Shown: positions 10,507 to 29,220, counted from the stretch's first letter. The stretch is 64,000 nt of DNA from Candidatus Multivorans sp. (GCA_965205295.1 OZ242167.1:2898097-2962096), one strand, 5' to 3'. Notes: generated by a model not told the origin, from the letters alone. Numbers and translations: made by a program.

Positions 10507-10524
10507 CCGGCTACGCTCCCGTCC

Positions 10525-12891
10525 ATGCGCCGCGCCCTTCCGCGGTGGTTTGCGCCCATAGCCGTCGCGGCGGCTATCGTCGCGCTGGCCCTGCTCGCCA
10601 TCCGCCTCCTGCCGGACCGCGAGATCACAGCCCCCTCCGGCCACTCCCTCGGCCGGCTCCCGGACGGCGTCGCCGCGGGCGACCTGAGCCTGCTCCTCAT
10701 CACCCTCGACACGACCCGGGCCGACCGCATCGGCGCTTACGGCTTCGCCGACATCGAGACGCCGCACCTCGACCGCCTGGCCGCGGAAGGCGTCCTGTTC
10801 GAGCAGGCGCAGGCGGTGGCGCCGCTGACCCTGCCCGCTCACTCGTCGATCTTCACCGGCGAGTTTCCGCCGGCGCACGGCGTCCGCGACAACGGCGGCT
10901 TCTACCTTGCCGACGAGCACGTCGTCCTGGCCGAGATCCTGCGCGACGAGGGCTTCCGCACCGGCGGCTTCGTCGGCGCCTTCGTCCTCGACGCCAAGTG
11001 GGGCATCTCCCAGGGCTTCGACCACTATTTCGACGACTTCGAACTCAGCGACACGGTCCGCCTGGCACTGAACGAGATCGAGCGGCCGGCCGGCGAGGTC
11101 ACCGACGCCGCCCTCGCCTGGCTCGACGGAGCCCCTGACGCGCGCTTCTTCTCCTGGGTCCACTACTACGATCCGCACTCGCCCTACGAGCCGCCCGAGC
11201 CCTTCGCCGAGCGCTACCGGAACCGGCCCTACGTCGGCGAGATCGCCTACGTCGACTCCCAGATCGGCCGCCTGCTGGCCTGGCTCGACGACAACGATCG
11301 CGCCAGCGACACGGTCGTCCTCGTGATCGGCGATCACGGCGAGAGCCTCGGGGAGCACGGCGAGTCCGGCCACGGTTTCTTCGTCTACGAAGCAGCGACC
11401 CGGGTTCCCTTCATCCTCCGCGCGCCCTACGACACGATGCGGGGGCGCCGGGTAGCGGACGTGGTCCGCGCCGTGGACGTCTCGCCGACCGTCCTCGACC
11501 TTCTCGCCGTGGACGCGGGCCAGGACGAGCGCGACTCCTCCTTCCAGGGCGCCAGCCTGGTCCGGCTGCTGACCGGCGCTTCGGGGCCGCGCCTTCCGGC
11601 CTACGCCGAGGCGGTCTACCCGCGCTACCACTACGGCTGGAGCGATCTCGCCTCGCTGCGGCTGGAGAACATGAAGTACGTCGCGGCGCCCCGCCCCGAG
11701 CTGTACGACCTGGCCGCCGACCCGGGCGAGCTGAACAACCTCTACTCCGCCCGCCCCGACGAGGTCGATCGAATGGCCACGATCCTCCGCGCGCTCGAGT
11801 CGAGATGGGCGGACGCCGCCCTGCCCGCCCCGGTCGAGGAGATCGACCCGGACACCCGGGCGCGGCTCGCCGCCCTCGGGTATCTCGCCAGCTTCACCGG
11901 CGGCGAAGCGGCGCCGGTCGACCGCTCCACGCTCGGTGACCCCAAGGACAAGATCCACCTCTTCAACCTGATGCGCATTGCCCGCGAGGCGTCGCTGCAA
12001 GGCAACAGGGACGCGGCCGTGGAGGCCCTGGAACGCGTGCTCGCCGAGGATCCGGCGGTCATCGACGCCTGGGTGCGGCTAGGCGACGAGCAGATCCGGA
12101 CGGACCGGACCGAGGCTGCAATCGGGAGCTACCGCAAGGCCCTCGAACTGAAGCCCGACTACGCGCACGCGGTGATCAACCTCGCCAACGCCTACCGGCG
12201 GGCCGGCGCGGAAGAGGAGGCCATCCTCGGCTACCAGGAGTTCCTGCGGCTCGATCCCCGCAACGCGATGATCCACTACGAACTCGCCCGCATGCTGGTG
12301 GACCGCGGCGAGCTCGACGGCGCCGACCGGCACCTGAAGGAAGCGGCAACCCTGTCACCCGACATGGGAGCGGCCTGGGTGGGCCAGGGCGCCGTGGCCC
12401 TCCTGCGGTCCGACCTCGCGGCCGCCGTACGGCTGTTCGACGAGGCGCTGGCAATCCAGCCGGACGTGCGGCTGGCGCACTACAACCTCGCCCTGCTCGC
12501 CGAGCAGCGCGGCGACGGGCGCGCCGCGGTGGACTTCTACCGCAAGGAACTCGACTACCACCCGCAGAGCTACCGGGTCCAGTTCAACCTGGGACGGCTG
12601 CTCGGGTTGCTGGGCGACCGGTACGGAGAAGGCGAAGCGTTGTCGAAGTCGATCGAGATCAATCCTGACTTCGCCGTCGGCCACTTCTTCCTGGCCAAGT
12701 CCCTGATCGACCGCAACGAGCAACTGGACCGGGCGATGGAGCTGGCCCGCACCGGCCTCGAACTCGACCCCGGCGCCGACATGGCCCCGATGGGCCACTA
12801 CCTGCTCGCCGACATCTTCACCCGCCTCGGCCAGCCGGAAGCGGCCCAGCGGGAACTCGCCACGGCGCGAGCGTTGGAACGAGAGCGTTGA
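10525..12891 (+). CDS. sulfatase-like hydrolase/transferase fused to C-terminal TPR repeats
   Basis: N-terminal alkaline-phosphatase-superfamily region (LLLITLDTTRADRIGAYGF, VIGDHGESLGEHGESGHG) without a C/S-x-P-x-R FGly motif. C-terminal ~350 aa of TPR units. Confidence 0.75.
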   Translation: MRRALPRWFAPIAVAAAIVALALLAIRLLPDREITAPSGHSLGRLPDGVAAGDLSLLLITLDTTRADRIGAYGFADIETPHLDRLAAEGVLFEQAQAVAPLTLPAHSSIFTGEFPPAHGVRDNGGFYLADEHVVLAEILRDEGFRTGGFVGAFVLDAKWGISQGFDHYFDDFELSDTVRLALNEIERPAGEVTDAALAWLDGAPDARFFSWVHYYDPHSPYEPPEPFAERYRNRPYVGEIAYVDSQIGRLLAWLDDNDRASDTVVLVIGDHGESLGEHGESGHGFFVYEAATRVPFILRAPYDTMRGRRVADVVRAVDVSPTVLDLLAVDAGQDERDSSFQGASLVRLLTGASGPRLPAYAEAVYPRYHYGWSDLASLRLENMKYVAAPRPELYDLAADPGELNNLYSARPDEVDRMATILRALESRWADAALPAPVEEIDPDTRARLAALGYLASFTGGEAAPVDRSTLGDPKDKIHLFNLMRIAREASLQGNRDAAVEALERVLAEDPAVIDAWVRLGDEQIRTDRTEAAIGSYRKALELKPDYAHAVINLANAYRRAGAEEEAILGYQEFLRLDPRNAMIHYELARMLVDRGELDGADRHLKEAATLSPDMGAAWVGQGAVALLRSDLAAAVRLFDEALAIQPDVRLAHYNLALLAEQRGDGRAAVDFYRKELDYHPQSYRVQFNLGRLLGLLGDRYGEGEALSKSIEINPDFAVGHFFLAKSLIDRNEQLDRAMELARTGLELDPGADMAPMGHYLLADIFTRLGQPEAAQRELATARALERER

Positions 12892-12902
12892 GTGTCCACC
12901 GG

Positions 12903-14654
12903 ATGAGCCGGCATCCGGCGCTCGCACTCGCCATCCTCCTCGCTGCCTGCGGCCAACCTGACCACCCCACCTCCGCCCCGCACCCACCCATCTTCATCGA
13001 CGCCGCCCGTGGCGCGAACCTCGACTTCGTCTACTTCAACGGCATGTCCGGCGAGCACTACTTCAACGAGATGATGGGCGGCGGCGCGGCCCTGCTCGAC
13101 TTCGACAACGACGGCGACCTCGACCTCTACCTCGTCCAGGGCACGATGCTCGGCCGCGATCGTTCGCTCGAAGACGCGCTCTTCCCGCCGCCGAAGGACA
13201 CGCCGCTCACCGACCGCCTCTACCGCAACGACCTGGAGCCGCCGGCCGGGGCCAACGCCGCGAGTCGTCCCCGCTTCACCGACGTCACCACAGCAAGCCG
13301 CATCGCCGCCAATGGCTACGGCATGGGCGTCACCACCGGCGACTTCGACAACGACGGCTGGACAGACCTCTACGTCACCAACTTCGGCGCCAACCAGTTG
13401 CTGCGGAACCGGGGCGACGGCACGTTCGAAGACACAACATCGGCCTCCGGAGTCGACGACCCGCGCTGGTCCGTCGGCGCCACCTTCTTCGACTTCGACC
13501 GCGACGGCTGGCTCGACCTCTACGTCGGCAACTACGTCGACTACTCGCTCGCTACCCACACCCCGTGCCCGCTGGCGAGCGGCGCGCTGACCTACTGCGC
13601 CCCCGGCGCCTACCGGCCCGTGCCGGACAGCCTGTTCCGCAACCGCGGCGACGGCACGTTCGAGGACGTGTCGTTGCCGTCCGGGATCGGCCGCGAACCG
13701 GGCGCCGGCCTGGGCGCCGTCGCCGCCGACTTCAACGGCGACCGCTGGCTCGACCTGTACGTCGCGAACGACCTGATGTCGAACCGCCTCTGGATCAACC
13801 GCGGCGACGGAACCTTCGCCGACAACGCCCTGCTCGCCGGCGTCGCCGTCAACCGGGAGGGCCAACCCGAGGCCGGCATGGGCGTCGACGCCGGAGACTT
13901 CGACGGCGACGGCGATCCCGACCTCGTGCTAGGACACCTGGAACAGGAGACGAACACCCTCTACGTCAACGGCGGCGCCGGCCTGTTCCGGGACCAATCG
14001 GCGTCGTCCCAACTTGGGCCGCCGAGCCTGCCGTTCACTGCCTTCGGCATCGGCTGGATCGACTACGACAACGACAGTTGGCTCGACGTGCTCGCCGTCA
14101 ACGGCGCCGTGATCGGCATCGACGCGCTGATCCGCGCCGGCGATCCGTACCCGCTGCGGCAAGCGAACCAGCTTCTGCGCAACCTCGGCAACGGCTCCTT
14201 CGACGAGGTCACGCCCGAGGCTGGCGCCCTCTTCCAGTCGGCCGAAGTCAGCCGCGCCGCCGCGTTCGGCGATGTCGACAACGACGGCGACCTCGATGTC
14301 GTCGTCGTCAACAGCAACGGGCCCGCCCGCCTGCTTCTCAACCAAGTCGGGCAGGACCGCTCCTGGCTGGGCTTGAGGCTCGTAGCCCACAACCGCGACG
14401 CGCTGGGGGCGCAGGTCCTCGTCCACCGGCAGGGCGCGCCGCCGATCTGGCGCCACGTCCACACCGACGGCAGCTACGCGTCAGCCCGCGATCCGCGGGT
14501 GCTCGTCGGCCTCGGGCACGGCGACGGCGCTGAGGTCGGTCACGTCGAAGTCCGCTGGCCGGACGGTACGGCGGAGCGGTGGACGGATGTGCGCGTCGGC
14601 GGGTACCAGACGCTGGTCCAGGGCGAGGGGGAGGCGATCGGCCGGCGTCCCTGA
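12903..14654 (+). CDS. CRTAC1-family protein (FG-GAP/VCBS repeats + ASPIC/UnbV C-terminal domain), lipoprotein
   Basis: The ORF track start at 12888 is TTG; ATG at 12903 gives MSRHPALALAILLAACG. Repeated GDFDNDGW/ADFNGDRW/GDFDGDGDPD motifs and a C-terminal VEVRWPDGTAERW block. Confidence 0.8.
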   Translation: MSRHPALALAILLAACGQPDHPTSAPHPPIFIDAARGANLDFVYFNGMSGEHYFNEMMGGGAALLDFDNDGDLDLYLVQGTMLGRDRSLEDALFPPPKDTPLTDRLYRNDLEPPAGANAASRPRFTDVTTASRIAANGYGMGVTTGDFDNDGWTDLYVTNFGANQLLRNRGDGTFEDTTSASGVDDPRWSVGATFFDFDRDGWLDLYVGNYVDYSLATHTPCPLASGALTYCAPGAYRPVPDSLFRNRGDGTFEDVSLPSGIGREPGAGLGAVAADFNGDRWLDLYVANDLMSNRLWINRGDGTFADNALLAGVAVNREGQPEAGMGVDAGDFDGDGDPDLVLGHLEQETNTLYVNGGAGLFRDQSASSQLGPPSLPFTAFGIGWIDYDNDSWLDVLAVNGAVIGIDALIRAGDPYPLRQANQLLRNLGNGSFDEVTPEAGALFQSAEVSRAAAFGDVDNDGDLDVVVVNSNGPARLLLNQVGQDRSWLGLRLVAHNRDALGAQVLVHRQGAPPIWRHVHTDGSYASARDPRVLVGLGHGDGAEVGHVEVRWPDGTAERWTDVRVGGYQTLVQGEGEAIGRRP

Positions 14655-14712
14655 CCCTGTGGCACGATCAACCGCCATTGCCGCCAACACTGGCCTCCGA
14701 GAGAATGCGCCC

Positions 14713-14994
14713 ATGAAGTCCATCACTGTTCGCGAACTGCAAAGCCCCTCCGCCGACGTTTGGGGAATGCTCGCAAAGGAGAAAGACCTCGTCGTCCGGT
14801 CCAACGGCGAGCCGGTCGCGGTACTTTCCGCGGTCACTGCCTCGACGCTGGACGCGGCCCGTGCAGCACTTCGGCAAGCTCGGGCTCAAGCGGCGGTCGC
14901 CGGAATGCAGCGCCGCGCTGCTGAGGTCGGCCTTGACGAGTGGAGCCCGGAGGACATCAACGCCGAGATCAATGCCTCCCGTCGAGAAAAATGA
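14713..14994 (+). CDS. Phd/YefM-like type II antitoxin (putative)
   Basis: 94 aa. MKSITVRELQ...DLVVRSNGEPVAVLSAV matches the Phd/YefM beta-alpha N-terminal pattern. Lies immediately upstream of a PIN-domain gene in an A/T-richer islet. Confidence 0.55.
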   Translation: MKSITVRELQSPSADVWGMLAKEKDLVVRSNGEPVAVLSAVTASTLDAARAALRQARAQAAVAGMQRRAAEVGLDEWSPEDINAEINASRREK

Positions 14995-15096
14995 GGATCG
15001 TCGTCGCTAGCCTTGTCGCTCACTGTGCAGTCGCGACAGTCAGATCAACCGAATCGTCCCCCGGCGAGCAGGGACCACACTACCGATCGAGATACG

Positions 15097-16119
15097 ATGT
15101 ACATCCTTTTCGATAGCAACATCTGGATCAAGGAACTTGGTCTGAACTCCACTCTCGGCGCAGCTGCCAGGTACTTCATTCGGCAAAGGAACGCAGTCGT
15201 CGCTGTTCCGGAAGTAGTGAGAAGAGAGGTGACCACCCACTTCGCCGATGACCTACTTCGGCGCAAACAGACGATCCACGATTCGCATCGCCGCCTATGC
15301 ACTGTGATGGGAGAACTCAAAGAACCGATGCTGCCGAGCGACGAAGAACTCATTGCCCGTGCGGCTTCGCTCATTGACGACGTGGACGTACCTACGAAGC
15401 CGATCCCATTCACGCTCCCAGCTGCTGAGTCGTCGCTCGAGAAAATCCTTCGGAAACAACCACCGTCCGCCGAGAAACGAGAGCAGTTCAGGGACGGTGT
15501 CATCTGGCACAATTGCCTAGATCTCCTCCATGAATCGGACGTGTTTCTAGTTACCAGCGACAAGGACTTCTGTGAGGGTAGAGCACGAAGGAAGGGCCAG
15601 GTGCTCGCCGCGAACTTGCGCCAAGAAGCGGAAGAGAGCCACCACCGGCTCACGTTCGTGACGAGCCTTTCGGCTCTCCTCGTAGACATCGGGGGCGATC
15701 TCGACATCGACGACGAGAGCCTAGCCGACGGCATATTCGCCAAGGCTGAACAGTACATCGCGAACTTGCTTGACAGGCATGGCTTTGTCATTGGCGATGC
15801 CGCGCCATCCGTCCGGCGCAAGCTGTTCGTTACAGAGAAGGCCTCGAAGCTAGCTGTCGACGTAGAAGTGGTGTTTCCATGCTTCGACGCTAGCGGTGAC
15901 GATCGAACGGACGCGGCGATCAAGGCTCATGGCTCGGCTCTGTACGATACCGAGTCTCGAGAAGTGACCGTGCCTCACATGCCGGAGCTGGAACTGCGCT
16001 ATCGGGATGTGGCCGACGAAGAGAAGTCTCACCGGTCGCTCTTCCTATCGGGGACGGTCTCGATAGGTCCGCGTACCGTTGTACACGAGGTCAGGCTAAG
16101 CCGAAGTTCTAGGGCCTGA
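15097..16119 (+). CDS. PIN-like domain protein with ~170-aa C-terminal extension (putative toxin/nuclease)
   Basis: N-terminus MYILFDSNIWIKE (first PIN acidic residue) and VFLVTSDKDF (distal T-x-D-x-D-F PIN motif) near residue 150. The remaining ~170 aa have no recognisable domain. Start trimmed to the ATG at 15097. Confidence 0.55.
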   Translation: MYILFDSNIWIKELGLNSTLGAAARYFIRQRNAVVAVPEVVRREVTTHFADDLLRRKQTIHDSHRRLCTVMGELKEPMLPSDEELIARAASLIDDVDVPTKPIPFTLPAAESSLEKILRKQPPSAEKREQFRDGVIWHNCLDLLHESDVFLVTSDKDFCEGRARRKGQVLAANLRQEAEESHHRLTFVTSLSALLVDIGGDLDIDDESLADGIFAKAEQYIANLLDRHGFVIGDAAPSVRRKLFVTEKASKLAVDVEVVFPCFDASGDDRTDAAIKAHGSALYDTESREVTVPHMPELELRYRDVADEEKSHRSLFLSGTVSIGPRTVVHEVRLSRSSRA

Positions 16120-16235
16120 GCGTCGCGGATCGTTGCCGCGCCTAGGGTTTTACGGTTTCCGGGCCGCACAATGTACCCATGTCGCATAGTCAATCGTGGT
16201 AGACATGGAGACATGATAGAGCTAAGATAGAAGCC

Positions 16236-17954
16236 ATGTACATCGAACGCGTACCCAACCGCAACTCGCCACCCGCCGTGCTCCTGCGCGAGTCGTACCG
16301 ACAGGACGGAAGAGTCTGCAAACGGACGCTCGCCAACCTTTCCAAGTGGCCCGATCATCTCGTCGAAGGGCTTCGCACTCTCCTGAAGGGCGGCGTCGCA
16401 CTGCCTTCCCTGGACTCGGCCTTCGAGATCCTGCGTTCCAAACCGCACGGTCATGTCGCCGCCACGCTCGGCGCCGCGCGACAATGCGGCCTCCAGACAC
16501 TGCTCGACCGCCGACCCTCACGGGAGCGGACGCTCGCGGTCGCCATGATCATCGCGCGCATCCTGGAACCAGGCTCCAAGCTCGCCACCGCCCGCGGACT
16601 CTCAAGCGAGACCTCGCCCCACTCCCTCGGCGAGGAACTCGGAATCGAGGAGGCGGGCGCCGACGAGCTCTACTCCGCCATGGATTGGCTGCTCAAGCGG
16701 CAGCAACGCATCGAGCGACGGTTGGCCAAACAGCACCTCGAAGACGGTTCCCTCGTCTTGTGCGACGTGACTTCGGTCTACTTCGAGGGCGCGAAGTGCG
16801 CCCTCGCCCGGCGCGGGTACTCCAAGGACGGCAAGCCGGGCAAGCCCCAGATCGTCTTCGCGCTGCTCTGCGACCGGGACGGATGCCCGGTCGCGGTGGA
16901 GGTCTTCGAAGGCAACACCGCCGATCCCGGCACGTTGAGCGCCCAGGTGCAGAAGCTCAAGGAGCGCTTCTCGCTCGACCGCATGATCATGGTCGGCGAT
17001 CGGGGCCTGCTCACCAGCGCCCGCATCCGCGAGGACCTCGAACCCGGCGGTCTGTCCTGGATCACCGCCCTGCGCGCGCCGGCGATCCGCACGCTGGTGC
17101 AGCAAGGCCACCTGCAACTGTCGATCTTCGACGAACGGGACATGGCCGAAGTGAGCGCCCCCGAGCTGTACCCCGCAGAGCGGCTGATCGTGTGCCGGAA
17201 CCCGCTCCTGGCAGCCAGGCGGCGCCGCAAGCGCGAGGAGCTTCTCGACGCCACCGAGCGCAAGCTCGAGGCCGTCGCCGAAGCGACGAGGCGCTCACAG
17301 CGCTCCCTGCGGGGCAAGGACAAGATCGCCGCCCGCGCCGACCGCGCCCTGCGCGCCCACAAGGTCGGCAAGCACTTCGACACCGAGATCGAAGAAGACG
17401 GCTTCCGCTACTCCCGCAAGCTGGCGCAGATCGCCGAAGAGGCCGCCCTCGACGGCTTCTACGTCATCCGCACCAACGTGGCCGAGGCCGACCTCCCGGC
17501 GCCGGAGGCGGTCCGGGCCTACAAGAGCCTCAGCCGCGTCGAGCGCGCCTTCCGCAGCTACAAGAGCGTCGACCTCAAGGTCCGCCCCGTCCACCATCGC
17601 CTCGCCGACAGAGTGCGAGCCCACGTCTTCCTGTGCATGCTCGCCTACTACGTCGAGTGGCACATGCGACGCCTTCTCGCTCCCTTGCTCTTCGACGACG
17701 ACGACCCAAGGGACGAACGCTCCTCGCCCGTCCAGCCGGCTCGACGGTCCCAGGCAGCCCGCGCCAAGGCGAGCCGCAGGCGCACACCGGAAGGACTACC
17801 CGTCCACAGCTTCCAGACATTGCTCGACGACCTCTCCACACTGACCCGAAATCGCGTCCGAATGCAGGGCCAGGGAAACGCCGCCCTGGACGTCCTGGCC
17901 ACACCCACACCCCTCCAGGCCAAGGCGTTCAGCCTCCTCAACCTCCGACCTTGA
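16236..17954 (+). mobile_element. IS1634-family (IS4-like) transposase gene; element ends not resolved
   Basis: N-terminus MYIERVPNRNSPPAVLLRESYRQDGRVCKRTLANLSKWPD is typical of IS1634-family transposases. DDE-type C-terminal region. Terminal inverted repeats could not be identified by eye. Confidence 0.75.
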
Positions 17955-18110
17955 CCAACCGTACCCAGTAGACAACACTCCCAAATCCCAAGTTTGCCCC
18001 GTCATTGCAGGGAATTTCACGCATCGGACCGCAGAACTTCGGTCTAAGCGAAGGAGAGTGGCTGGGGCGGTACGAACGCGCCGATGCGTGAATAGGCCGC
18101 TCCGATCGGT

Positions 18111-19910
18111 TCAATACGGCGGAAGTACATCCCCCACCCGAGCACAGCACGCCTCGCCGCGCTCGTACCGCTCCAGGTTGCGGGCCAGACGCCGCCCCTC
18201 GCCGCCGCGCTCCAGCCGCTGCGCTTCCTGGACCAGAGTGCGCTGGATGTTGATCGCTTCCTCGAAACGGCCGACCTCGGCCAGTGCCATCGCCGCGGTC
18301 TCGGCCTTGGGCGCGGCGTTGTCGGCTTCGAGCAGCGCGCCGGCGATGGCGAGGGCACGCGGACCGTCACGGAGCGACGGGTCGGGGGCGCCGGCAAGCA
18401 GTCGCGCCAGGGAGTGAGCGGCGCGGTCGTCCGTTGAATCGACCCCCAGCCGCGCTTCGAGCGAGGCCTTGGCGTCGGCGAAACGCCCCAGGCCCATCAG
18501 GACGGTCGCCTCGCGCAGCCAGGCGAGGCCCTGTGCCGGATCGATCTCGCGGACGCGGGTGTAGTGCGGCAGGGCTTCGTCGAGCTGGCCGGTGCGCACG
18601 AGGGCTTCGGCGAGTCCGAAGTGGATGCGGGAGGCCCGCTCGTCCCCCGGCTCGTGCCGTAGCGCTTCCTGCAACGCGACGACGGCCTGCTCGAAGTTCC
18701 CGGTCTGCGCCAGCACGGCCCCCAGTCCGAGCCGGGCATCGCCGTTGCCGGCGTCGCTCTCGAGCACCCGGCGGTAGGTCGCCTCCGCTTCGTCCAGGCG
18801 TCCCAAGCGCGCCTGGACGCTGCCGAGGCTCAATCTCGCGTCGACCAGTTCCGGCTCGAGTTCGAGCGCCCGGCCGAGATGCTCCAGGGCGCGGTCGTTC
18901 TGGCCGAGCTCTCCCAGCAGGACACCGAGGTCGGAGTGGGCGCGGGCATTCTCCGGCTCCAGCCGGACCGCGACGCCGAAGTGCTCCAGCGCCGCCTGGG
19001 GATTGCCGCGGCGCACCAGGACGGTACCTAGGCTCTGATGGGCGCGCGGATTTGTGGCGTCGGCAGCCACGGCCTGCCGGTAGGCCTCCTCCGCTTCCGC
19101 CAATCGGCCCTCCCGCGCGGCGGCGTTGCCTCGCGTCAGGTGGGGCGAGGCGCCAATCGCCAGGGTCGTCAGCTCGTGCATCAAGGGGTCGGCCATCGCG
19201 ACTCTGGTCGTCCCGCTACGAGCCAGGGCCCGCTCGGCGTCCTCGAACCGGCCCTGCTCCCGATACGCCTGGCCGAGGTGGTAGTGGAGGACGGAAGCTC
19301 TCGGCTGGAGCGTCAATGCCCGCTCGAACTGTCCGATGGCTTCCGCGTATACGCCTCGCTCTTCGGCGACCCGGCCCATTCCATAGGCCACGGCGGCCGA
19401 GTCGTCCACCACCGCTGCCCGCACATAGAGGAGCTCCGCTTGGTCGACCTGGCCCTGTTCGAGCTCGAGGTCGGCGAGGCGGATCAGGGCCGGCGCGTCG
19501 TCGAGCCGCAGATCGAGCGCGTGACCGAACGCGGCCGCAGCCCCTTCGACATCCCCGCTGCCGGCTGCCAACACACCCAGGTAGTAGGCCCAGGCGAAGG
19601 ACTCCGGATCGAGGGCATGCGCTTCGCGGTAGCAGGCCTGGGCGGCTTCGAGGAGGCGGTGGGCCTGGTAGAGGCGGCCCAGCTCGCCGAGGGCCTGCGC
19701 CTGGTCGGCGGCGCTTGCGGCTTCGTCGGCGAGCAGTGCGTCGAGTTCGGCGCGGCGGGCCTCCAGCTCCCGGGCGAGTGGCGGTTCGAGTTCGGCCAGT
19801 TCCGGGTGAGGGATCCCGGCCGGCGACGCCGAAGTCTCGCCCAAGTCGGACGCGCAAGCCAGAAGCATCGCGAGGACAAGAGCAATCGTGCCTGCTTTCG
19901 CGATGCTCAC
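18111..19910 (-). CDS. TPR-repeat lipoprotein
   Basis: GTG start. Lipoprotein signal MSIAKAGTIALVLAMLLACASD, then ~14 TPR-like helical repeats. Confidence 0.8.
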   Translation of the reverse strand: MSIAKAGTIALVLAMLLACASDLGETSASPAGIPHPELAELEPPLARELEARRAELDALLADEAASAADQAQALGELGRLYQAHRLLEAAQACYREAHALDPESFAWAYYLGVLAAGSGDVEGAAAAFGHALDLRLDDAPALIRLADLELEQGQVDQAELLYVRAAVVDDSAAVAYGMGRVAEERGVYAEAIGQFERALTLQPRASVLHYHLGQAYREQGRFEDAERALARSGTTRVAMADPLMHELTTLAIGASPHLTRGNAAAREGRLAEAEEAYRQAVAADATNPRAHQSLGTVLVRRGNPQAALEHFGVAVRLEPENARAHSDLGVLLGELGQNDRALEHLGRALELEPELVDARLSLGSVQARLGRLDEAEATYRRVLESDAGNGDARLGLGAVLAQTGNFEQAVVALQEALRHEPGDERASRIHFGLAEALVRTGQLDEALPHYTRVREIDPAQGLAWLREATVLMGLGRFADAKASLEARLGVDSTDDRAAHSLARLLAGAPDPSLRDGPRALAIAGALLEADNAAPKAETAAMALAEVGRFEEAINIQRTLVQEAQRLERGGEGRRLARNLERYERGEACCARVGDVLPPY

Positions 19911-19971
19911 CGTCCGATCCTAGTTGCCGCCGCGCGCCGCCCCTCGTGTATCGTCGTCTCCCGCCGATTGA

Positions 19972-20937
19972 ATGTTCGTTTCTCGCTCCATCGCGATCCT
20001 GGTTCTGGCGTGCGGCTGCGCGGCGCCGCAAGCCGAATCAGCCGGGCCGAGCGCGAGAATCCCGGCCCTGATCATCGACGGCGTGAACAACCACGACTGG
20101 CAGCGCACCACCGCCGCCGTCAGGGCGACGCTCGAGCGGACTGGGCGGTTCACGGTTGACGTCAGCACTTCGCCCGGCCGGAGCGCGTCGCGCGAGGAGT
20201 GGGAGGCCTGGCGGCCCGTCTTCTCGGATTACGCAGTCGTGGTCAGCAACTTCAACAGCGACTGCGAGCGGGAAGACGGCGATTGCGAGCCCTACTGGTC
20301 GGCGAACCTTCGCGCCGACTTCGAGACCTTCGTTCGCGAGGGAGGCGGTTTCGTTCCGGTCCACGCGGCCGACAACCACGCCGCGGACTGGATCGAATAC
20401 AACGAGATGATCGCCGTCGGCGGTTGGGGGGGACGCCGGACCGGGGTCTCGGGCTCCATCCTGCGCAAGATCGACGGCATCTGGACCGCGACCTCACCCG
20501 ACGAGGGGTTGAGCGGCAGGCACGGTCGCATCCGCGAGTTCCAGGTCATCCACGATCGGCCCGACCACCCCATCCTGGCCGGGCTGCCGACCACCTGGAT
20601 GCACGCGGCAGACGAGCTCTACGCCTCACTGCGCGGCCCGGCCGGGAACGTCGAGGTCCTCGCGCACGCCAACTCCCTCGTGACCGAAGAGCTCGAGCCC
20701 ATGCTGATGCTCATCACCTACGGCCAGGGCCGCGTCTTCCACATCCCGATGGGGCACTACAACGACGAGTTCGAGCCCATCGGCGCCTCCCTGCACTGCG
20801 TCGGCTTCCAGACCGTGCTCGCCCGCGGCACGGAGTACGTGGCAACCGGCGAGGTGTCGATCGGCGTGCCGGCTGCCTTCCCAGGGCCGGACGAGCCGTC
20901 CGTTCTCGCCCCCGAACGCCTCGAGTGGCCGATGTGA
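19972..20937 (+). CDS. thuA: ThuA-domain protein (class I glutamine-amidotransferase-like)
   Basis: Signal peptide. ThuA-type segments FVPVHAADNHAADW and IAVGGWGG. Confidence 0.8.
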   Translation: MFVSRSIAILVLACGCAAPQAESAGPSARIPALIIDGVNNHDWQRTTAAVRATLERTGRFTVDVSTSPGRSASREEWEAWRPVFSDYAVVVSNFNSDCEREDGDCEPYWSANLRADFETFVREGGGFVPVHAADNHAADWIEYNEMIAVGGWGGRRTGVSGSILRKIDGIWTATSPDEGLSGRHGRIREFQVIHDRPDHPILAGLPTTWMHAADELYASLRGPAGNVEVLAHANSLVTEELEPMLMLITYGQGRVFHIPMGHYNDEFEPIGASLHCVGFQTVLARGTEYVATGEVSIGVPAAFPGPDEPSVLAPERLEWPM

Positions 20938-20951
20938 TCTGCCGCCGCGCC

Positions 20952-23885
20952 ATGCGTCCCGGCCTTTCCGGCCGGCTCTTCTTCCCGGTCCTGGCCGCGA
21001 CGCTGAGCGCGGCGCTTCAGGCCCAATCGCCGGTTCCCGCCACGCCGACACCGGTCGTCCCGGGCTACGAGCATCTGAGACTCGCCGGCGCGGCCAGCGA
21101 AGCGGCGCTCGGCGAAGTGCTGCTCGGCGAACTGAACTGCCTGTCCTGCCATGAACCGACGCTTGACGTGGCGAGACGGATACCCACCCGCACGGCCCCC
21201 GACCTCGCGGGGCTCAACCAACGGGTCACCGTGGAGTGGCTCACCGGTTATCTGGCCGATCCGGAAGAACACAAGCCGGGCTCGACGATGCCTGAGGTCC
21301 TGCACACTCTCGACACCGAGGATCGGAACCGCGTCGCGCGTTCCATCGCGCGCTTCCTCTTCTACGAGGAGGCGCCGCCCGAGCCGAATGCGGCCCCGGT
21401 CGCGGCCGACGATGCGAACGGCGGTGTAGCGGACGAGTTCCCGGTGTTCCGGTTCCGGACCGCGGTGGAGCGGGGGCGCAGGCTCTTCCACTCGATCGGT
21501 TGCGTCGCCTGCCATGCGCCCGAGGCATCCGGCGCCGAACCGGCGATCCCCTCCGTCCCGCTGCCCGACCTGGCGGCGAAGACCTCGGTCGCCGCGTTGA
21601 CTCGCTTCCTCCTGGACCCACGGTCGACAAGGCCAGGTGGGCGCATGCCGTCCCTGTACCTGACCCCGGCGGAAGCGGAGAATCTGGCGATCTATCTGCT
21701 GCGGGACCAGGAACCGCAGGTCGTCGAGCGCCGACAGGGCTTCGAGTTCGAGTACTTCCTCGATCCCATGCAGGACGAGGACGTAAGAGGCTTCTTCGAC
21801 CGGCCACCTGCCGATCTCGACGCGATGGAACCGGCCGCCGAGGGCCGGATCGGCCGCCTGTCACTACGCCTGCCGGTTGAGATGAACTACGGCAACCACG
21901 CGTACCGGTTTGCCGGCGTGATGCGGGTGCCCGAGACGGGGCGCTACACGTTCACACTGGCCTCGGACCGCCGCTCCGGTTCCTCGCTCGCGGTCGACGG
22001 CGAAGTGGTCGCCACGAAGTCAGGCGGAAGCGCCCGCGAGGCGGACGCACAGCTCGAACTGAACGCCGGGGACCATCCGGTCACGGTGGCGTACTTCATT
22101 CGCGGCGACACCCGGGAACCGTTCCTGACGGTGGGTCTCGCTGGCGATCCTCTACCCCAGGACGCGGCGCTCGAGGACTACACAACCTACGAGAACGTAC
22201 GGCTGCGGCCGGGTGGCGGCACCCTGGTTTCCAAGGACGCGGAGGACGCGGGCTGGGGCGCCCGACTCTTCGTCCGCCACGGCTGCGCGTCGTGCCACGG
22301 CTACGCGGGAATCCAACCCGACCGGCGCGACATCACGACCCCGCCGGCGCTCACCGACCTCGATCCGGCGGCCGTCGCCAGCGAACCCGGCATGCACACG
22401 GGCAACGACTCGCCGCGCTATCCGCTCGCCGGTCATCAGAAGCGCGCGATCCGAGCGGCCCTCGCTGCCCTTCAGGATCTCCCAACGCCCCGGACACCCG
22501 CCGACCAGATCGTCCATGCGATGGCGAGCTACAACTGCTACGCCTGCCATCGCCGAAACGCCGGGACGGTCGCGGTCGGCGGACCGGACCCCGTACGCGC
22601 GACGTACCTCGAGGTGGTCGGCGGCCAGGACCTCGGCGACGAGGGGCGGCTACCGCCGGACCTGCACGCCATCGGCGGGAAGCTGAAGCCCGAAGCGCTG
22701 CACTCGGTTCTGACGGCGGACGAACTGCACGTCCGCCGCGACTTCATGGAAGTCAGGATGCCGAACTTCGCCGGCGAAGCAATCGATCGGCTCGCCGACT
22801 CCCTGGCCACCGCCGACGCAGCGGCCGGCGACCTGAGCGAACCGGCCTTCTCGACCGAGGCGGCCTCCGACGGGATCGAACTGCTGGGCGAGCAGGCCAT
22901 GAGCTGCGTCACGTGCCACAACGTTCACGTCCATCCCGCCCAGGGCGTCTCGACCATCGACCTGGCCACCGTCTATGACCGGTTGCGGCCCGGATGGGTC
23001 ACGCGGTACCTGCGGGATCCGGCCGCGATCCGGCCGGGAACCCGCATGCCTGCCTTCTGGCCCGAGGGCGCCGCGAACTTCCAGCACCTGGGCGGCGGCA
23101 CCGTCGACGGCCAGATCGATGCGATCTGGAACGCCCTCTCGCTCGGCACCTCCATGCCGGCGCCCGAGGGCACGAACATCGGCGCCGAGCTGGTTCTCGT
23201 GCCGGACGAGCGCCCGATCGTGTTCCGCACCTTCATGGTCGACGTCGGACCGCGGTCGATCGCCATCGGCTACCCGGAGAACGTCCACGTCGCCTTCGAC
23301 GCGAACAACGTCCGCCTGGCGAAGATCTGGCGCGGCGGTTTCTTCGACGCCAAGGGCACCTGGCAGGGCCGAGCGGGCCGGTTCCTCGGTCCCTACGGCA
23401 CGGATGTGCTGGACCTTCCGCCCGGCCCGGCCATCGCGGACCTGGGCGACATCGACAGTCCGTGGCCCACGGCGGGCCGAGCCGACCGGAACGTGGGCGG
23501 CCGTTTCCTCGGCTACCGGCTCGACGACGAGGGCAGGCCGGTGCTGCGCTACCGCCTGCACGACCTCCTGGTCGAGGAGGCGCCGACGCCACTGCACAGC
23601 GGCGGCGGCACCAACCTGATCCGCCGCTTCCGGCTTACCGCCGGCTCGGCCCCCCGCCCCCTCTATCTGCTGCTGGCCGAGGGCGAAGAGATCGTCTCGA
23701 CGTCGGAGCGCTCATGGAGCGTCGATGGCCGGCTCGACGTATCGATTGCCTCCGAGGCCTCCGGTGCTGCCGAAGCGGATCTCGCGCCGTTCGTTCGGGA
23801 GTCCCAGGGCGTCCGGCAGCTCCTGCAGCGAATCGACCTTCAACCGAACGAAACGCTCGACATCGACGTGACTCTCTCCTGGTGA
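20952..23885 (+). CDS. large secreted multi-domain protein with several c-type heme-binding CxxCH sites and a PA14-like domain (PVC-type heme-binding protein family)
   Basis: ATG at 20952 gives a signal peptide, MRPGLSGRLFFPVLAATLSAALQAQ. CxxCH sites CLSCH, CVACH, CASCH, CYACH and CVTCH. PA14-like segment GRYTFTLASDRRSGSSLAVDG. Confidence 0.7.
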   Translation: MRPGLSGRLFFPVLAATLSAALQAQSPVPATPTPVVPGYEHLRLAGAASEAALGEVLLGELNCLSCHEPTLDVARRIPTRTAPDLAGLNQRVTVEWLTGYLADPEEHKPGSTMPEVLHTLDTEDRNRVARSIARFLFYEEAPPEPNAAPVAADDANGGVADEFPVFRFRTAVERGRRLFHSIGCVACHAPEASGAEPAIPSVPLPDLAAKTSVAALTRFLLDPRSTRPGGRMPSLYLTPAEAENLAIYLLRDQEPQVVERRQGFEFEYFLDPMQDEDVRGFFDRPPADLDAMEPAAEGRIGRLSLRLPVEMNYGNHAYRFAGVMRVPETGRYTFTLASDRRSGSSLAVDGEVVATKSGGSAREADAQLELNAGDHPVTVAYFIRGDTREPFLTVGLAGDPLPQDAALEDYTTYENVRLRPGGGTLVSKDAEDAGWGARLFVRHGCASCHGYAGIQPDRRDITTPPALTDLDPAAVASEPGMHTGNDSPRYPLAGHQKRAIRAALAALQDLPTPRTPADQIVHAMASYNCYACHRRNAGTVAVGGPDPVRATYLEVVGGQDLGDEGRLPPDLHAIGGKLKPEALHSVLTADELHVRRDFMEVRMPNFAGEAIDRLADSLATADAAAGDLSEPAFSTEAASDGIELLGEQAMSCVTCHNVHVHPAQGVSTIDLATVYDRLRPGWVTRYLRDPAAIRPGTRMPAFWPEGAANFQHLGGGTVDGQIDAIWNALSLGTSMPAPEGTNIGAELVLVPDERPIVFRTFMVDVGPRSIAIGYPENVHVAFDANNVRLAKIWRGGFFDAKGTWQGRAGRFLGPYGTDVLDLPPGPAIADLGDIDSPWPTAGRADRNVGGRFLGYRLDDEGRPVLRYRLHDLLVEEAPTPLHSGGGTNLIRRFRLTAGSAPRPLYLLLAEGEEIVSTSERSWSVDGRLDVSIASEASGAAEADLAPFVRESQGVRQLLQRIDLQPNETLDIDVTLSW

Positions 23886-23913
23886 TCTCGTGGCCCTTCT
23901 GAGTACCAGCACG

Positions 23914-25473
23914 ATGCAACCCGGCCGCGCCGCCGCGATGGCGCTGGTCGCCCTGCTGATCTCCCTGCCCCTGGCCCTTCTCGCCCAGGAACCCCTGGAC
24001 GATGGCCAGCGCGAAGAGACGGAGAAGGAGCTCCTCGACCGCCAGCGGGACGCCATCGGCGCGCAGGCCGCCGCGGAGGAGCTGTCCTACCGGCTGCTCA
24101 CGATGCCCCTCCAGGAGGGCATGTCGATGGAGGTCGGCGGGTTGTTGCAGCTCTCGGACGGCCGCATCATGGTGGGGACCCGGCGGGGCGAGATCTTCAT
24201 CGTCGAGAACGCGTTCAGCGATCCGCCGCAGCCGACGTTCAAGCAGTACGCCTTCGGTCTCGGGCAACCGCTTGGTCTGCTTGAACTGGACGGCTGGATC
24301 TACACGGCACAGCGGGGCGAGTTGACCCGGATCAAGGACACCGACGGCGACGATCGGGCCGACGTCTTCGAGACCGTCACGGATGCCTGGGAAACCAGCG
24401 GCGACTACCACGAGTACGTCTTCGGACCCCGCCTGACGCCGGACGGAAAGCTCTGGGTGACGCTGAACATCCCCTTCGGCGGCCAACCCTACGGGTTCGC
24501 CGACTGGCGGGGCTGGGCAGCCCGGGTCGATCCTGCGACCGGCGACGCCGAGTTCGTGGCGGCGGGCCTACGCTCTCCCGCCGGCGTCGAGGTCAGCCCC
24601 TGGGGCGAGGTCTTCTACACGGACAACCAGGGCGAGTGGAACAACGCCTCGAAGCTCTCGCTGATCGAGGTGGGCGACTTTCACGGTCATCCCCACGGCA
24701 TGGCCTCGACCCACCTTCCCGAGTCCCAGGTCGAGCCGCCGCCGGAGGGCCAGCCGCAGGGCGGAACCTTCATGAAGGACCTGCACGAGCTGATTCCGAA
24801 CTACCGCATGCCTTCCGTCTGGTTCCCCTACGTGAAGATGGGGCAGTCCCCCAGCGGTCTCAAGTGGGACACGACCGGCGGCAAGTTCGGCCCCTTCGCC
24901 GGTCAACTCTTCGTCGGCGACCAGCATCACGCGATGGTCATGCGGGTGTTCCTGGAGAAGATCGGCGGCCACTGGCAGGGCGCCGCGTTCAACTTCCGGC
25001 GCGGCCTCGACAGCGGCGTGATCCGCCTCGCGTTCGCCGACGACGGATCGCTCTTCGCCGGCATGTCGGACCGCGGCTGGGGCGGCGTCGGCCCCGAGCC
25101 GCACGGTCTCCAGCGGATCGTCTGGACCGGCGCCGTGCCGTTCGAGGTCCACGAGATGCGGGCTCAGTCCGACGGCTTCGAACTCACGTTCACCCGGCCG
25201 GTCGATCCCGCGAGCGCAGGGGACACCGCGTCCTACCGCATGCAGAGCTACACCTACCGCCTCAGCTCAAGCTACGGCGGACCGGAGGACGACAAGCAGC
25301 GGGTCGCCATCCAATCCGCCCGGGTCGCCGCCGACGGCATGAGCGTCCGCCTGACCGTCGAACCGCTGCGCGCCGGCTACGTCCACGAGCTGCATCTCGA
25401 CGGAGTCCGGAGCAAGGGCGGCGAACCGCTGCTCCACCCGGAGGCCTACTACACGCTCGTCAACATTCCATAG
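23914..25473 (+). CDS. beta-propeller dehydrogenase-like protein (soluble glucose/sorbosone dehydrogenase-like)
   Basis: ATG at 23914 gives the signal MQPGRAAAMALVALLISLPLALLAQEP; the track start at 23890 is GTG. Propeller-like repeats. Co-localised with the ThuA and heme-binding genes, as in PVC-type clusters. Confidence 0.6.
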   Translation: MQPGRAAAMALVALLISLPLALLAQEPLDDGQREETEKELLDRQRDAIGAQAAAEELSYRLLTMPLQEGMSMEVGGLLQLSDGRIMVGTRRGEIFIVENAFSDPPQPTFKQYAFGLGQPLGLLELDGWIYTAQRGELTRIKDTDGDDRADVFETVTDAWETSGDYHEYVFGPRLTPDGKLWVTLNIPFGGQPYGFADWRGWAARVDPATGDAEFVAAGLRSPAGVEVSPWGEVFYTDNQGEWNNASKLSLIEVGDFHGHPHGMASTHLPESQVEPPPEGQPQGGTFMKDLHELIPNYRMPSVWFPYVKMGQSPSGLKWDTTGGKFGPFAGQLFVGDQHHAMVMRVFLEKIGGHWQGAAFNFRRGLDSGVIRLAFADDGSLFAGMSDRGWGGVGPEPHGLQRIVWTGAVPFEVHEMRAQSDGFELTFTRPVDPASAGDTASYRMQSYTYRLSSSYGGPEDDKQRVAIQSARVAADGMSVRLTVEPLRAGYVHELHLDGVRSKGGEPLLHPEAYYTLVNIP

Positions 25474-25911: not shown

Positions 25912-26412
25912 TCACGGATCGCCAGCCGCAGCCTCCTTCGCGATCCACAGAAGGTCCGACGGAAGCTGGACATCGGAGCGGCGACGGCCTGTCTCCCGGC
26001 GACCTGGAACGTGAACTGCGTAAAAGAGGCCGCCGTCTGGGCCGAAGCTCACGATCAGCGACCGCGCCCTACCACTTGACCATTGCATGGCCACCCCACC
26101 GTCAGGCTCAGGCACGATCTCGGGCATCGGCACATCGGGCGTGAGGGTCAACAGGGCATCATTCAGGGCGTCCTTCGCGCGACGCGACAACGGCTTGGCT
26201 TCGCCGCCATCCCAGCCGGGACTGGACGTCTCTTCGATGATCTCCCGCAGGTTCCTCACGGCATCCCGCCTTGACAACTGCCACGCGGAGACTGCGGATT
26301 CCGAAGTCTCTTCCTCCCTGACGATTCGAAACGCCTCCGGCCCAACAGCCGTCGAACGACGCCTCCCGAGTTGTCCCACCCAATCCTGAGCTTCCAAACC
26401 AACTAGAGTCAT
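25912..26412 (-). CDS. hypothetical protein (second gene of a three-gene cassette)
   Basis: 166-aa ORF overlapping the stop of the upstream gene by 4 nt (ATGA coupling at 26409-26412). No recognisable domain. Confidence 0.45.
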   Translation of the reverse strand: MTLVGLEAQDWVGQLGRRRSTAVGPEAFRIVREEETSESAVSAWQLSRRDAVRNLREIIEETSSPGWDGGEAKPLSRRAKDALNDALLTLTPDVPMPEIVPEPDGGVAMQWSSGRARSLIVSFGPDGGLFYAVHVPGRRETGRRRSDVQLPSDLLWIAKEAAAGDP

Positions 26413-29147: not shown

Positions 29148-29220
29148 GAAGGCTGCCAACCCCCATCCGGGCTAGAACGCGGACCCGGTTGGCGCTCGAC
29201 TCACCGGCTCGGCGAGCGGG

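Follow-up and report, generated by a model that had tools for sequence, protein, structure and literature searches.

The interval between a CRTAC1-like gene and the gene for a TPR lipoprotein in the DNA of this uncultured member of the Acidobacteriota raises the question of whether one mobile insertion separated two formerly contiguous genes, or whether the pieces of the interval have separate histories. The window is the whole stretch of DNA analysed (64,000 nucleotides); the interval (14655-18110) is bounded by the stop codons of the two converging genes. The initial annotation had framed it in this way, with the CRTAC1 gene ending at 14654 and the lipoprotein gene at 18111-19910, and both the coordinates and the Pfam domains agree. 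The small ORF, the PIN ORF (54 bits with PF16289, cut-off 32) and the IS1634 transposase (353 bits with NF033559) are all present in the interval, and the second CRTAC1/TPR pairing noted at 41960-46704 is real. Orthologues of the CRTAC1-like gene show 81-83% amino acid identity with conserved synteny, and those of the lipoprotein gene 74-80% identity. We find that the interval is a mosaic of three layers differing in age and not a single islet: an antitoxin gene of long standing, a foreign gene for a nuclease that took the place of the original toxin, and an insertion sequence (IS) that is intact and arrived very recently. Our main reading, to which we assign a probability of about 0.8, is that of a type II toxin-antitoxin (TA) locus remodelled twice, in which a VapBC module underwent a toxin swap and then an IS insertion. 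The features of the locus are:

12888-14654, plus strand: CRTAC1-like gene with FG-GAP_3 repeats and UnbV_ASPIC (Pfam); left flank of the variable site
14713-14994, plus strand: Phd/YefM-type (VapB) antitoxin gene, 93 aa (family profile of its homologues and conservation of the site)
14991-15006, plus strand: VapC (PIN_3) relic, consisting of the ATGA overlap and codons M-R-I-V-V (identity to L095-L097)
15007-16100, plus strand: lower-GC replacement DNA (GC 0.574), comprising the 5' flank and the first 334 codons and two bases of the PIN_12 gene
16096-16101, no strand: left copy of the target-site duplication, CTAAGC (CTAAG if the IS starts at 16101)
16102-18043, plus strand: IS1634-family IS, 1,942 bp (NF033559, inverted repeats, limits of homology to L082/L083)
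16200-16228: predicted promoter-like site in the IS
16236-17954, plus strand: transposase ORF, 572 aa (NF033559)
18044-18049, no strand: right copy of the target-site duplication, CTAAGC
18050-18091, plus strand: severed 3' end of the PIN_12 gene, 13 codons (EGEWLGRYERADA) and stop (from proteins P0002 and P0187)
18062-18090, no strand: inverted duplicate of 18148-18176 (25 of 29 nt), whose source lies inside the 3' end of the TPR-lipoprotein gene
18111-19910, minus strand: TPR lipoprotein gene (Pfam); right flank of the variable site

Base Composition of the Interval

Against a GC background of 0.676 (mean of 1-kb windows, sd 0.026), the PIN_12 gene has a GC content of 0.572 (z = -3.96), and no background window is equally low; the value for the small antitoxin ORF is 0.638. 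The IS is host-like, with 0.662 overall (z = -0.5) and 0.678 in the transposase ORF, while its short non-coding ends are low in GC (0.54-0.55). The whole interval, at 0.632, lies below the window mean. The earlier description of 3.4 kb of A/T-richer DNA is thus correct for about 1.1-1.4 kb around the PIN_12 gene and incorrect for the IS, and the PIN_12 gene is the sole strongly foreign-looking piece of the interval.

An Antitoxin Gene Long Resident at the Site

Taken alone, the antitoxin encoded in the window reaches only 15.9 bits with PF02604 (E = 0.011, residues 2-42), which is below the gathering threshold of 29.8 bits. The Phd-like label that it had been given is not earned by this protein by itself; it is earned by the family. 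About 35 homologues with 57-69% identity mostly carry PF02604, which is matched at E <= 0.01 by 24 of 26 of them; the L095 homologue reaches 31.7 bits and thereby exceeds the cut-off, one homologue is named Phd/YefM antitoxin by NCBI, and the family profile matches VapB-5 (3dbo_A) and VapB46 in the PDB. The window protein departs from its family at 9 of 52 near-invariant columns, including an L79P exchange in the C-terminal region. Scanning the small ORF with PADLOC and PHROGs gave no matches. Antitoxin homologues occupy the same site in L095-L099, remnants are present in L003 and L004, and in L090-L094 the homologues adjoin the same TPR lipoprotein. The antitoxin gene is a long-term resident of the site within this clade.

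A Relic of the Original Toxin Gene

In the relatives that carry an antitoxin of 93-97 aa at the same site, its stop overlaps by 4 nt (ATGA) the start of a 136-aa VapC toxin of the PIN_3 type (70 bits). We inspected the partner toxin for two clusters of antitoxin homologues, and the 4-nt overlap with PIN_3 was found in all 10 places covered. The window retains 16 nt of VapC, namely the overlap and the first five codons: ATGAGGATCGTCGTCG is identical in L095-L097, which go on with GACACGAAC (D-T-N...), and the window departs from them from 15007 onward. On this sequence comparison, the PIN_12 gene took the place of VapC, leaving the 16-nt relic behind. A metagenome scan for the junction between relic and cassette (ATGAGGATCGTCSTCGCTAGCCTT) yielded no match.

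As in VapBC-5 of M. tuberculosis (PDB 3dbo) and VapBC46 (PDB 6jqy), the window possesses a small upstream antitoxin with a Phd/YefM N-terminal motif, and the PIN (PF13470) toxin of approximately 136 aa, overlapped by ATGA, that is found in VapBC systems is present in its relatives at this site. In contrast to VapBC systems, the cognate VapC of the window is reduced to five codons, and the nuclease encoded downstream comes from another Pfam family, is 2.5 times the size, has an extra C-terminal domain and starts 102 nt past the antitoxin stop; its neutralisation by the antitoxin is putative. Relatives bearing the same genes at the same place with host-like composition would speak against a mobile insertion. 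Antitoxin homologues together with a PIN_3 VapC do occur there; the PIN_12 gene is still foreign-looking.

The PIN_12 Nuclease and the Right Junction of Its Cassette

The PIN_12 ORF as it now reads spans 15097-16119 and encodes 340 aa. Assignment of its product to the PIN_12/DUF4935 family follows from an HMM score above threshold, the PIN acidic residues and a two-domain architecture, with a VapC-like PIN nuclease domain and an alpha+beta C-terminal domain in the uninterrupted protein of 348 aa. DUF4935/PIN_12 (PF16289) belongs to the VapC structural group of the PIN-like superfamily (Matelska et al., 2017, PMC5499597), and its genes are "usually mono-cistrons" (PMC5499597). The window gene resembles the family in the length of its product (about 340-350 aa) and in an N-terminal PIN domain with conserved acidic residues; in contrast to this mostly monocistronic family of unknown function, it sits behind a retained VapB-type antitoxin in a former VapBC locus. 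Beyond this locus, its closest homologues reach about 43% identity, no exact copies of the window's PIN_12 protein or transposase are on record, and PADLOC and PHROGs scans of the PIN_12 protein gave no matches. Four homologues with 36-40% identity sit in defence-type neighbourhoods, and none of these four has a Phd-like partner beside it. PIN_12 also occurs in an L086-type MZB-PLD-PIN_12-TIR operon.

With its full set of PIN acidic residues and an intact conserved core, the PIN_12 protein may still be a competent Mg-dependent nuclease. Its most likely role would be that of an effector working alone, in defence or in the manner of a toxin, with transcription reading through from the promoter of the antitoxin gene, and the kept antitoxin would most likely be an orphan repressor or anti-addiction remnant and not a cognate inhibitor.

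The right breakpoint of the cassette can be placed only within about 18050-18110. This region contains the 29-nt inverted duplicate of part of the lipoprotein gene, whose 25 matching positions compare with at most 21 of 29 in shuffled sequence, and because of it the PIN_12 tail WLGRYERADA resembles NLERYERGEAC of the lipoprotein. The junction region with the duplicate is identical in L081 and L106; in L095, L090 and L001 the DNA at this position is too short to hold it. We interpret the duplicate as the scar of the cassette's right junction.

A Complete and Recently Inserted IS

The transposase reaches 352.9 bits with NF033559 (transpos_IS1634, cut-off 100), covering positions 5-482 of the 483 in the profile, and also matches PF01609 (DDE_Tnp_1). 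The ends of the element and its target duplication, which the initial annotation had been unable to locate, can be recognised: the termini carry CCGAAGTTCT in inverted orientation (16101-16110 and 18033-18042), flanked by clean CTAAGC copies. CCGAAGTTCT is found exactly twice in the 64 kb, only at the IS ends (chance expectation 0.09); the inverted-repeat arms match at 15 of 19 positions, and positions 1, 7 and 8 of the terminus are C, T and T. Homology to the independent copies in L082 and L083 (91.7% nucleotide identity) stops at the same positions, and many contigs with IS homologues are 1.94-1.97 kb in length. The repeats flanking the L082 and L083 copies are imperfect (CTTAGA / ACTAGA) and back the IS termini, not the length of the duplication. 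Fifteen metagenome loci that match the left end of the IS have no right end within 1.7-2.3 kb and are consequently not copies of it.

Members of the IS1634 family measure 1,500-2,000 bp, have ends of the type C-----YT and generate direct repeats of 5-6 bp (De Palmenaer et al., 2008, PMC2266710). The window IS fits this description with its single 572-aa ORF, its length of 1,942 bp, its termini CCGAAGTT and a duplication of 5-6 bp that is A+T-richer than the genome. The closest transposase found shares 91% identity with that of the window; the IS itself is probably a new member of this family or an isoform not yet named. The proposal that the element is decayed or part of a larger composite did not survive: it is complete, with its own inverted repeats and 6-bp duplication, and neither self-BLAST of the IS nor a search with the terminal 10-mer detected a second copy in the 64-kb window, so that the two bracketing IS copies of a composite transposon were not found there. 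One transposase on record departs from that of the window at two residues, which suggests that the source genome has two or more copies of the IS.

The IS sits in the last 13 codons of the PIN_12 gene, with the insertion junctions GGCTAAGC / CGAAGTTC on the left and CTTCGGT / CTAAGCGAAGG on the right. Two uninterrupted alleles, L081 and the same-species contig L106 (about 99% identical; flanking alignments 98.96% and 99.83% identical in nucleotides to the window), carry antitoxin and PIN_12 genes at this site without the IS and read GGTCAGGCTAAGCGAAGGAG. Where L106 and L081 have a single CTAAG(C), the window has two, with a 1-nt ambiguity in the length of the duplication (5 versus 6 bp). The window is 1,948 nt longer than both alleles, which is accounted for by the 1,942-bp IS and a 6-bp duplication. 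Proteins P0002 (L081, 82% amino acid identity) and P0187 (L106), each of 348 aa, end in ...HEVRLSEGEWLGRYERADA, the exact C-terminus predicted by excising 16102-18049, and P0187 is identical to the window's PIN_12 protein through residue 335. The severed 13-aa tail is non-conserved and has low pLDDT. Since a same-species contig lacks the IS, its insertion is recent.

The twofold remodelling that we favour comprises three steps. Comparison with relatives shows that the CRTAC1-like/TPR-lipoprotein junction in these Acidobacteriota carries a canonical VapBC module. In the line that comprises the window, L106 and L081, VapC was replaced from codon 6 onward by about 1.1 kb of lower-GC DNA, providing the 348-aa PIN_12/DUF4935 gene; the antitoxin and the 16-nt relic stayed in place, and the 29-nt inverted duplication marks the right junction. 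Finally, a complete IS1634-family element entered the last 13 codons of PIN_12, duplicating CTAAGC and swapping the disordered, non-conserved 13-aa tail for RSSRA.

Turnover of the Site Among Relatives

At the same junction, relatives carry VapBC, an orphan HigA-like XRE gene, a frameshifted type I hsdM, a GSDH-like pseudogene, or nothing. The antitoxin survives the deletion of PIN_12 in L100-L105; of these, L100-L102 have also lost the lipoprotein gene, and what remains of the cassette is 49 nt of its 5' flank, together with the relic and the antitoxin. Between the window and L081, the antitoxin gene and the C-terminal half of PIN_12 are 98-100% identical and the flanking genes 85-90%; inside this block, the PIN_12 nuclease domain shows 68-84% nucleotide identity. 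Because blocks of such high identity stand amid the more divergent flanks, antitoxin and PIN_12 move as a unit. Movement as a unit is also expected of a functional two-gene module.

Accessory-gene hotspots (defence/TA islands) between core genes are similar to this site in that cargo differs among relatives and identity forms a recombination mosaic. In comparison to them, the site spans very little DNA (0 to a few kb) and possesses no integrase, tRNA or flanking repeats: we found no tRNA in 9000-24000, no match in an Rfam scan of the region, no integrase among the ORFs of the interval and no flanking repeat pair at 14655/18110. A classical integrative genomic island, with integrase, tRNA/tmRNA target and flanking direct repeats, was accordingly rejected. 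Turnover of the site appears to proceed by illegitimate and homologous recombination, not by a dedicated integration system.

In L001 and L002 the site is empty. The CRTAC1 and TPR-lipoprotein genes abut with overlapping stop codons, and the C-terminal tail GEGEAIGRRP of the CRTAC1-like protein, common to occupied sites, is replaced by the shorter GEGDQ. This state looks like a deletion, since a clipped CRTAC1 tail is fused to the stop codon of the neighbour, and the empty sites of L001 and L002 are probably secondary deletions. CGATCGG is found on either side of the site, but a simple deletion of the window's configuration between these two copies would give a different junction, and this route was rejected. 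L001 and L002 are not sister genomes (0 of 200 bootstraps in a single-gene, distance-method tree with 200 replicates); their identical junction therefore reflects either inter-lineage recombination or unreliable single-gene rooting, and insertion versus deletion of the original VapBC module at the site cannot be firmly polarised.

Less probably, the empty state of L001 and L002 would be ancestral, and VapBC, and later its PIN_12 version, would have been gained more than once through homologous recombination in the flanking genes. Such gains would fit the identity of the junction GGAGATCAATAGGGCGG in two non-sister lineages, the transfer of the whole interval between species that is directly visible from the comparison of the window with L081, and the lower identity of the antitoxins (57-69%) relative to the flanking genes (74-86%). 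However, both branches of the deepest ingroup split (window/L004 versus L003/L095-L099) contain the antitoxin or remnants of it, and the longer C-terminal tail is present in outgroup CRTAC1 proteins as well as in ingroup loci with other downstream neighbours. The earlier idea of accessory DNA is borne out by the empty sites, and the transposase does belong to a genuine mobile element; the interval did not arrive as one unit.

Do Antitoxin and PIN_12 Form a Working Pair?

An in situ toxin exchange might have made a hybrid module in which the VapB antitoxin controls the two-domain PIN_12 nuclease, a proposal that we regard as unlikely. The antitoxin would then be the cognate inhibitor and transcriptional repressor of PIN_12, either after the swap or already before it, and the two genes would constitute a functional VapB-PIN_12 TA or abortive-infection system spreading as a unit between co-resident species. 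Both genes share strand and order, and since no promoter or terminator was called between them, co-transcription is plausible. The near-identical antitoxin and PIN_12 3' half shared with L081 amid diverged flanks, the intact antitoxin ORF in every PIN_12-bearing genome seen, and the pairing of Phd/YefM-type antitoxins with PIN toxins (e.g., VapB-5, VapB46) all favour such a pair, and the divergence of the antitoxin at conserved positions could be adaptation to a new partner. In opposition to this, the spacer of 102 nt (from 14994 to the ATG at 15097) replaces the canonical 4-nt overlap and is far from tight operon spacing; none of the four PIN_12 homologues examined has such a partner, the family is described as mostly monocistronic (PMC5499597), and the pairing is seen in only three assemblies (window, L106 and L081) of closely related organisms. 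The antitoxin does not depend on PIN_12, since it persists in L100-L105, a finding that is nonetheless compatible with a module.

Delivery of antitoxin, PIN gene and transposase together as one foreign islet by a decayed IS or composite transposon is highly improbable: the empty sites in L001 and L002 and the lower GC content of the interval as a whole would suit it, but the IS has its own inverted repeats and a target duplication inside the PIN gene, is host-like in GC content and has no second copy in the window, antitoxin homologues reside at the same site in many relatives with a different toxin, and L106 and L081, which carry antitoxin and PIN_12 without the IS, contradict it.

Implications

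The twice-remodelled TA locus is a well-documented yet ordinary case of accessory-locus turnover that does not overturn current understanding. Related assemblies show its intermediates, i.e., the empty site, the canonical VapBC, the toxin-swapped pair with relic and scar, and the IS-interrupted version, and further states in which the nuclease is lost or the antitoxin overwritten; together they show how a TA locus, small and flanked by core genes, changes through replacement, deletion, transposition and recombination between species. For an IS1634-family element of uncultured Acidobacteriota, exact ends, a target site and signs of recent activity can now be given. The antitoxin is a candidate, testable partner for DUF4935/PIN_12, a family of no known function. 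If the two genes do form a pair, this would be a first hint that members of the usually solitary PIN_12 family can act as toxins or effectors in TA or abortive-infection systems of two genes; co-resident symbiont species would be exchanging the module whole, with its nuclease domain diversifying along the way.

Organization and base composition of the interval

The interval between a CRTAC1-like gene and a TPR lipoprotein gene (14655-18110) is a VapBC locus in which a foreign PIN_12 nuclease gene has taken the place of the toxin gene; an IS1634-family element, intact and active in recent times, later struck the locus. It contains three plus-strand ORFs.

Genes in and around the interval 14655-18110
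12888-14654, plus strand: CRTAC1-like gene (FG-GAP_3 and UnbV_ASPIC); its stop codon forms the left bound
14713-14994, plus strand: small ORF, 93 aa, sub-threshold Phd/YefM match
15097-16119, plus strand: PIN_12 ORF, 340 aa (PF16289, 54 bits; cut-off 32)
16236-17954, plus strand: transposase ORF, 572 aa (NCBIfam IS1634 transposase, 353 bits; cut-off 100)
18111-19910, minus strand: converging TPR lipoprotein gene; its stop codon forms the right bound

The initial annotation had described this interval as a single foreign, A/T-rich islet composed of a Phd-like antitoxin, a PIN protein and an IS1634 transposase. These genes are present, and the CRTAC1/TPR pairing noted at 41960-46704 is genuine, but the interpretation as one islet does not hold. 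The dip in GC content exists, but has the PIN gene at its centre and extends over about 1.1-1.4 kb rather than over 3.4 kb, because the low GC resides in this gene and the IS is overall host-like. Against a window average of 0.676 (sd 0.026; 1-kb windows), the PIN_12 gene has a GC content of 0.572 (z = -3.96), a value reached by none of the background windows, and its GC3 is 0.66 versus 0.84-0.92 in neighbouring genes. The corresponding values of the small ORF are 0.638 and 0.69. Host-like values apply to the complete IS (0.662) and to the transposase ORF (0.678; GC3 0.86), with low GC confined to the short non-coding ends of the element (0.54-0.55). GC content also falls below the window mean at 26001-27000 (0.608) and 29001-32000 (0.62-0.63).

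The resident VapBC pair and the replacement of its toxin

By itself, the 93-aa ORF matches Phd/YefM only below threshold (E = 0.011). About 35 homologues (57-69% identity) were found; 24 of the 26 aligned match PF02604, and their profile matches VapB-5 and VapB46 of M. tuberculosis. By homology, the small ORF is thus a resident VapB-type antitoxin. We inspected the genomic context of two clusters of antitoxin homologues. In the first (L095-L099), genes for sulfatase-TPR, CRTAC1, antitoxin, a 136-aa PIN_3 VapC, TPR lipoprotein (minus strand) and cytochrome c follow one another, and the site is that of the window; in the second (L090-L094), the same antitoxin-VapC pair lies beside the same lipoprotein and cytochrome genes. 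The antitoxin stop and toxin start codons overlap as ATGA in every case inspected in these clusters.

The window has kept ATGAGGATCGTCGTCG at 14991-15006, identical to L095 and comprising the ATGA overlap and the VapC codons M-R-I-V-V. L095 then continues with GACACGAAC (D-T-N, the PIN motif), whereas the window departs from position 15007 into the lower-GC DNA carrying the PIN_12 gene. This arrangement indicates that the VapC toxin was swapped in place for PIN_12. On the right, the breakpoint of the cassette can be placed only to about 18050-18110. An inverted copy connects 18062-18090 with 18148-18176, a segment within the lipoprotein gene's 3' end (25/29 nt; at most 21/29 in shuffled sequences); this copy explains the similarity of the original PIN_12 tail (WLGRYERADA) to the C-terminus of the lipoprotein (NLERYERGEAC). 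We read it as the scar left when recombination brought in the cassette.

A recent IS1634-family insertion

The best-placed inverted repeat consists of the arms 16101-16119 and 18024-18042. In the 64 kb there are exactly two occurrences of its core CCGAAGTTCT, one in each arm and in inverted orientation (0.09 expected), and CTAAGC flanks both arms (16096-16101 and 18044-18049); one ambiguous nucleotide leaves the target duplication at 5 or 6 bp. In length, ends and direct repeats, the element fits the description published for IS1634-family members (1,500-2,000 bp, terminal C-----YT and 5-6 bp direct repeats; PMC2266710). A promoter-like site lies directly upstream of the transposase start codon.

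After in silico excision of 16102-18049, the PIN ORF is predicted to run on through HEVRLS-EGEWLGRYERADA to a stop codon. Two database proteins of 348 aa end in precisely this way: P0002, 82% identical to the window PIN_12, and P0187, the same as the window protein up to residue 335. Their contigs (L081 and L106, respectively) possess the same gene order, lack the IS and read GGTCAGGCTAAGCGAAGGAG at the site. L106 belongs to the same species as the window (nucleotide identity 98.96% over window 9097-16106 and 99.83% over 19942-23969), and the interval itself is essentially 100% identical. Since this same-species contig is without the IS, the insertion is a recent, strain-level polymorphism; the IS itself is complete.

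Homology to independent copies of a related IS (L082 1366-3310 and L083 1362-3311; 91.7% nucleotide identity, unrelated context) breaks off at these same two ends. The copies adjoin a Methylase_S gene for type I restriction specificity and are flanked by imperfect repeats (CTTAGA/ACTAGA; CTTAGG/CCTAGA), which, together with the CTAAG of the window, hint at a CTNAG-like target preference. A transposase variant with two differing residues is on record from a contig of 4,813,793 bp, equal in length to the one encoding the PIN_12 and antitoxin proteins of the window, which suggests at least two IS copies in that genome. The window contains no second copy, and a composite transposon is therefore rejected. 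The 22-mer CCGAAGTTCTNGGGCNTGAGCG occurs in 15 JGI metagenome contigs (L107-L121); no matching right end lies within 1.7-2.3 kb of it, and these matches were rejected as copies of the window IS.

The PIN_12 protein and its relation to the antitoxin

The insertion exchanges the last 13 residues of PIN_12 for RSSRA. When 27 homologues are aligned, conservation of the core stops at the HEVRL-equivalent motif, beyond which the tails vary. The AlphaFold model (pLDDT 86, pTM 0.77) is mostly of low confidence at residues 317-348 (pLDDT below 50 at 317-336 and 342-348). PIN_12 thus probably tolerates the insertion. The family-invariant residues D6, E39, E44, D133 and D155 are all kept, in agreement with Matelska et al. 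(2017).

Matelska et al. (2017) list the function of DUF4935 as unknown and describe its genes as usually monocistronic. PADLOC and PHROGs hold no model for the protein. Four inspected homologues (36-40% identity) all lack a Phd-like neighbour and lie amid defence-type genes: AbiJ_NTD3 and RES (L084), MZB, PLDc_2 and TIR_2 (L086), a type ISP restriction enzyme and PemK (L087), and DruA nearby on a JGI contig. In L086 (1-4333), the PIN_12 gene (about 40% identical) is the third of four tightly packed genes with overlapping ends, in the order MZB-PLDc_2-PIN_12-TIR_2; this operon looks like an uncharacterised defence system.

The retained antitoxin might control PIN_12. In favour of this, window and L081 share blocks of 98-100% identity over the antitoxin and the 3' half of PIN_12, amid flanking core genes of only 85-90%, so that the interval is exchanged between species as a unit. 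Inside this block, the PIN-domain half is hyper-divergent (68-90% nucleotide identity; window 15061-15760 versus L081 2990-3700), which looks like either a different allele recombined in or diversification limited to the nuclease domain. We nevertheless consider such control unlikely: a 102-nt spacer separates the genes, no conserved antitoxin-PIN_12 pairing was found elsewhere, and the window antitoxin departs at 9 of 52 near-invariant family positions (0-6 in other members), L79P in its C-terminal part among them. The only two of the 26 homologues that miss PF02604 are the PIN_12-linked copies. L100-L102 retain the antitoxin, the VapC relic and 49 nt of the cassette 5' flank, but a single deletion has taken out PIN_12 together with the lipoprotein gene. 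This shows PIN_12 to be dispensable and the antitoxin to persist after its loss. Across L100-L105 (e.g., L100 1730-2460), the antitoxin is 99% identical, and a single deletion with the junction CAACCGAATC/CTAGTTGCC fuses window-equivalent 15055 to 19921, removing PIN_12 and the entire TPR lipoprotein gene.

History and variability of the site

A scan of the genome collection yielded eight orthologous loci with conserved flanks (81-83% aa identity).

Content of the site in related loci
L001, L002: empty site; the two stop codons overlap, GGAGATCAATAGGGCGG
L003: orphan HigA-like XRE gene, C-terminal two-thirds of the antitoxin, decayed toxin start
L008: HigA-like gene alone
L004: first ~29 antitoxin codons and a frameshifted GSDH-like gene
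L053: frameshifted type I hsdM
L005: altogether different neighbour

The HigA-like XRE/HTH_3 gene (95 aa, minus strand; L003 11781-12068, L008 11757-12041) has no adjacent HigB-type toxin in either locus; in L003 it overwrote the 5' third of the antitoxin gene. The same junction carries the restriction-modification hsdM gene in L053 (12558-14052), and in L004 (11993-13613) the glucose/sorbosone dehydrogenase-like gene with an unassigned 378-aa ORF.

In a CRTAC1 neighbour-joining tree, the group excluding the window and L004 was monophyletic in 99.5% of bootstraps, and L001 and L002 were sisters in none; by this topology, the antitoxin is present on both sides of the deepest split. The outgroup and most of the ingroup possess a CRTAC1 tail of 3-11 residues past G-x-G that L001 and L002 lack. 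Because of both observations we prefer a history in which an old VapBC module was deleted secondarily at L001 and L002, a reading that depends on a single-gene tree amid inter-lineage recombination.

A second small variable spot adjoins the first. Only the window and L106 have its ThuA-family gene (19972-20937, between the TPR lipoprotein and cytochrome-c genes) intact; the gene persists as internally deleted remnants in L081 and L100-L105, and is missing there from L001-L003 and L008. Window and L106 are 77-95% identical at 18999-20076 (5' half of the lipoprotein gene and its upstream region) and in two CRTAC1 patches (13151-13450 and 14201-14650), and about 100% in the rest of the region; the divergent stretches look like recombination mosaics in surface-protein genes.

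All three components of the interval are of known kinds. The locus is mildly unusual only in its well-resolved toxin replacement and in the candidate pairing of an antitoxin with a DUF4935 protein.
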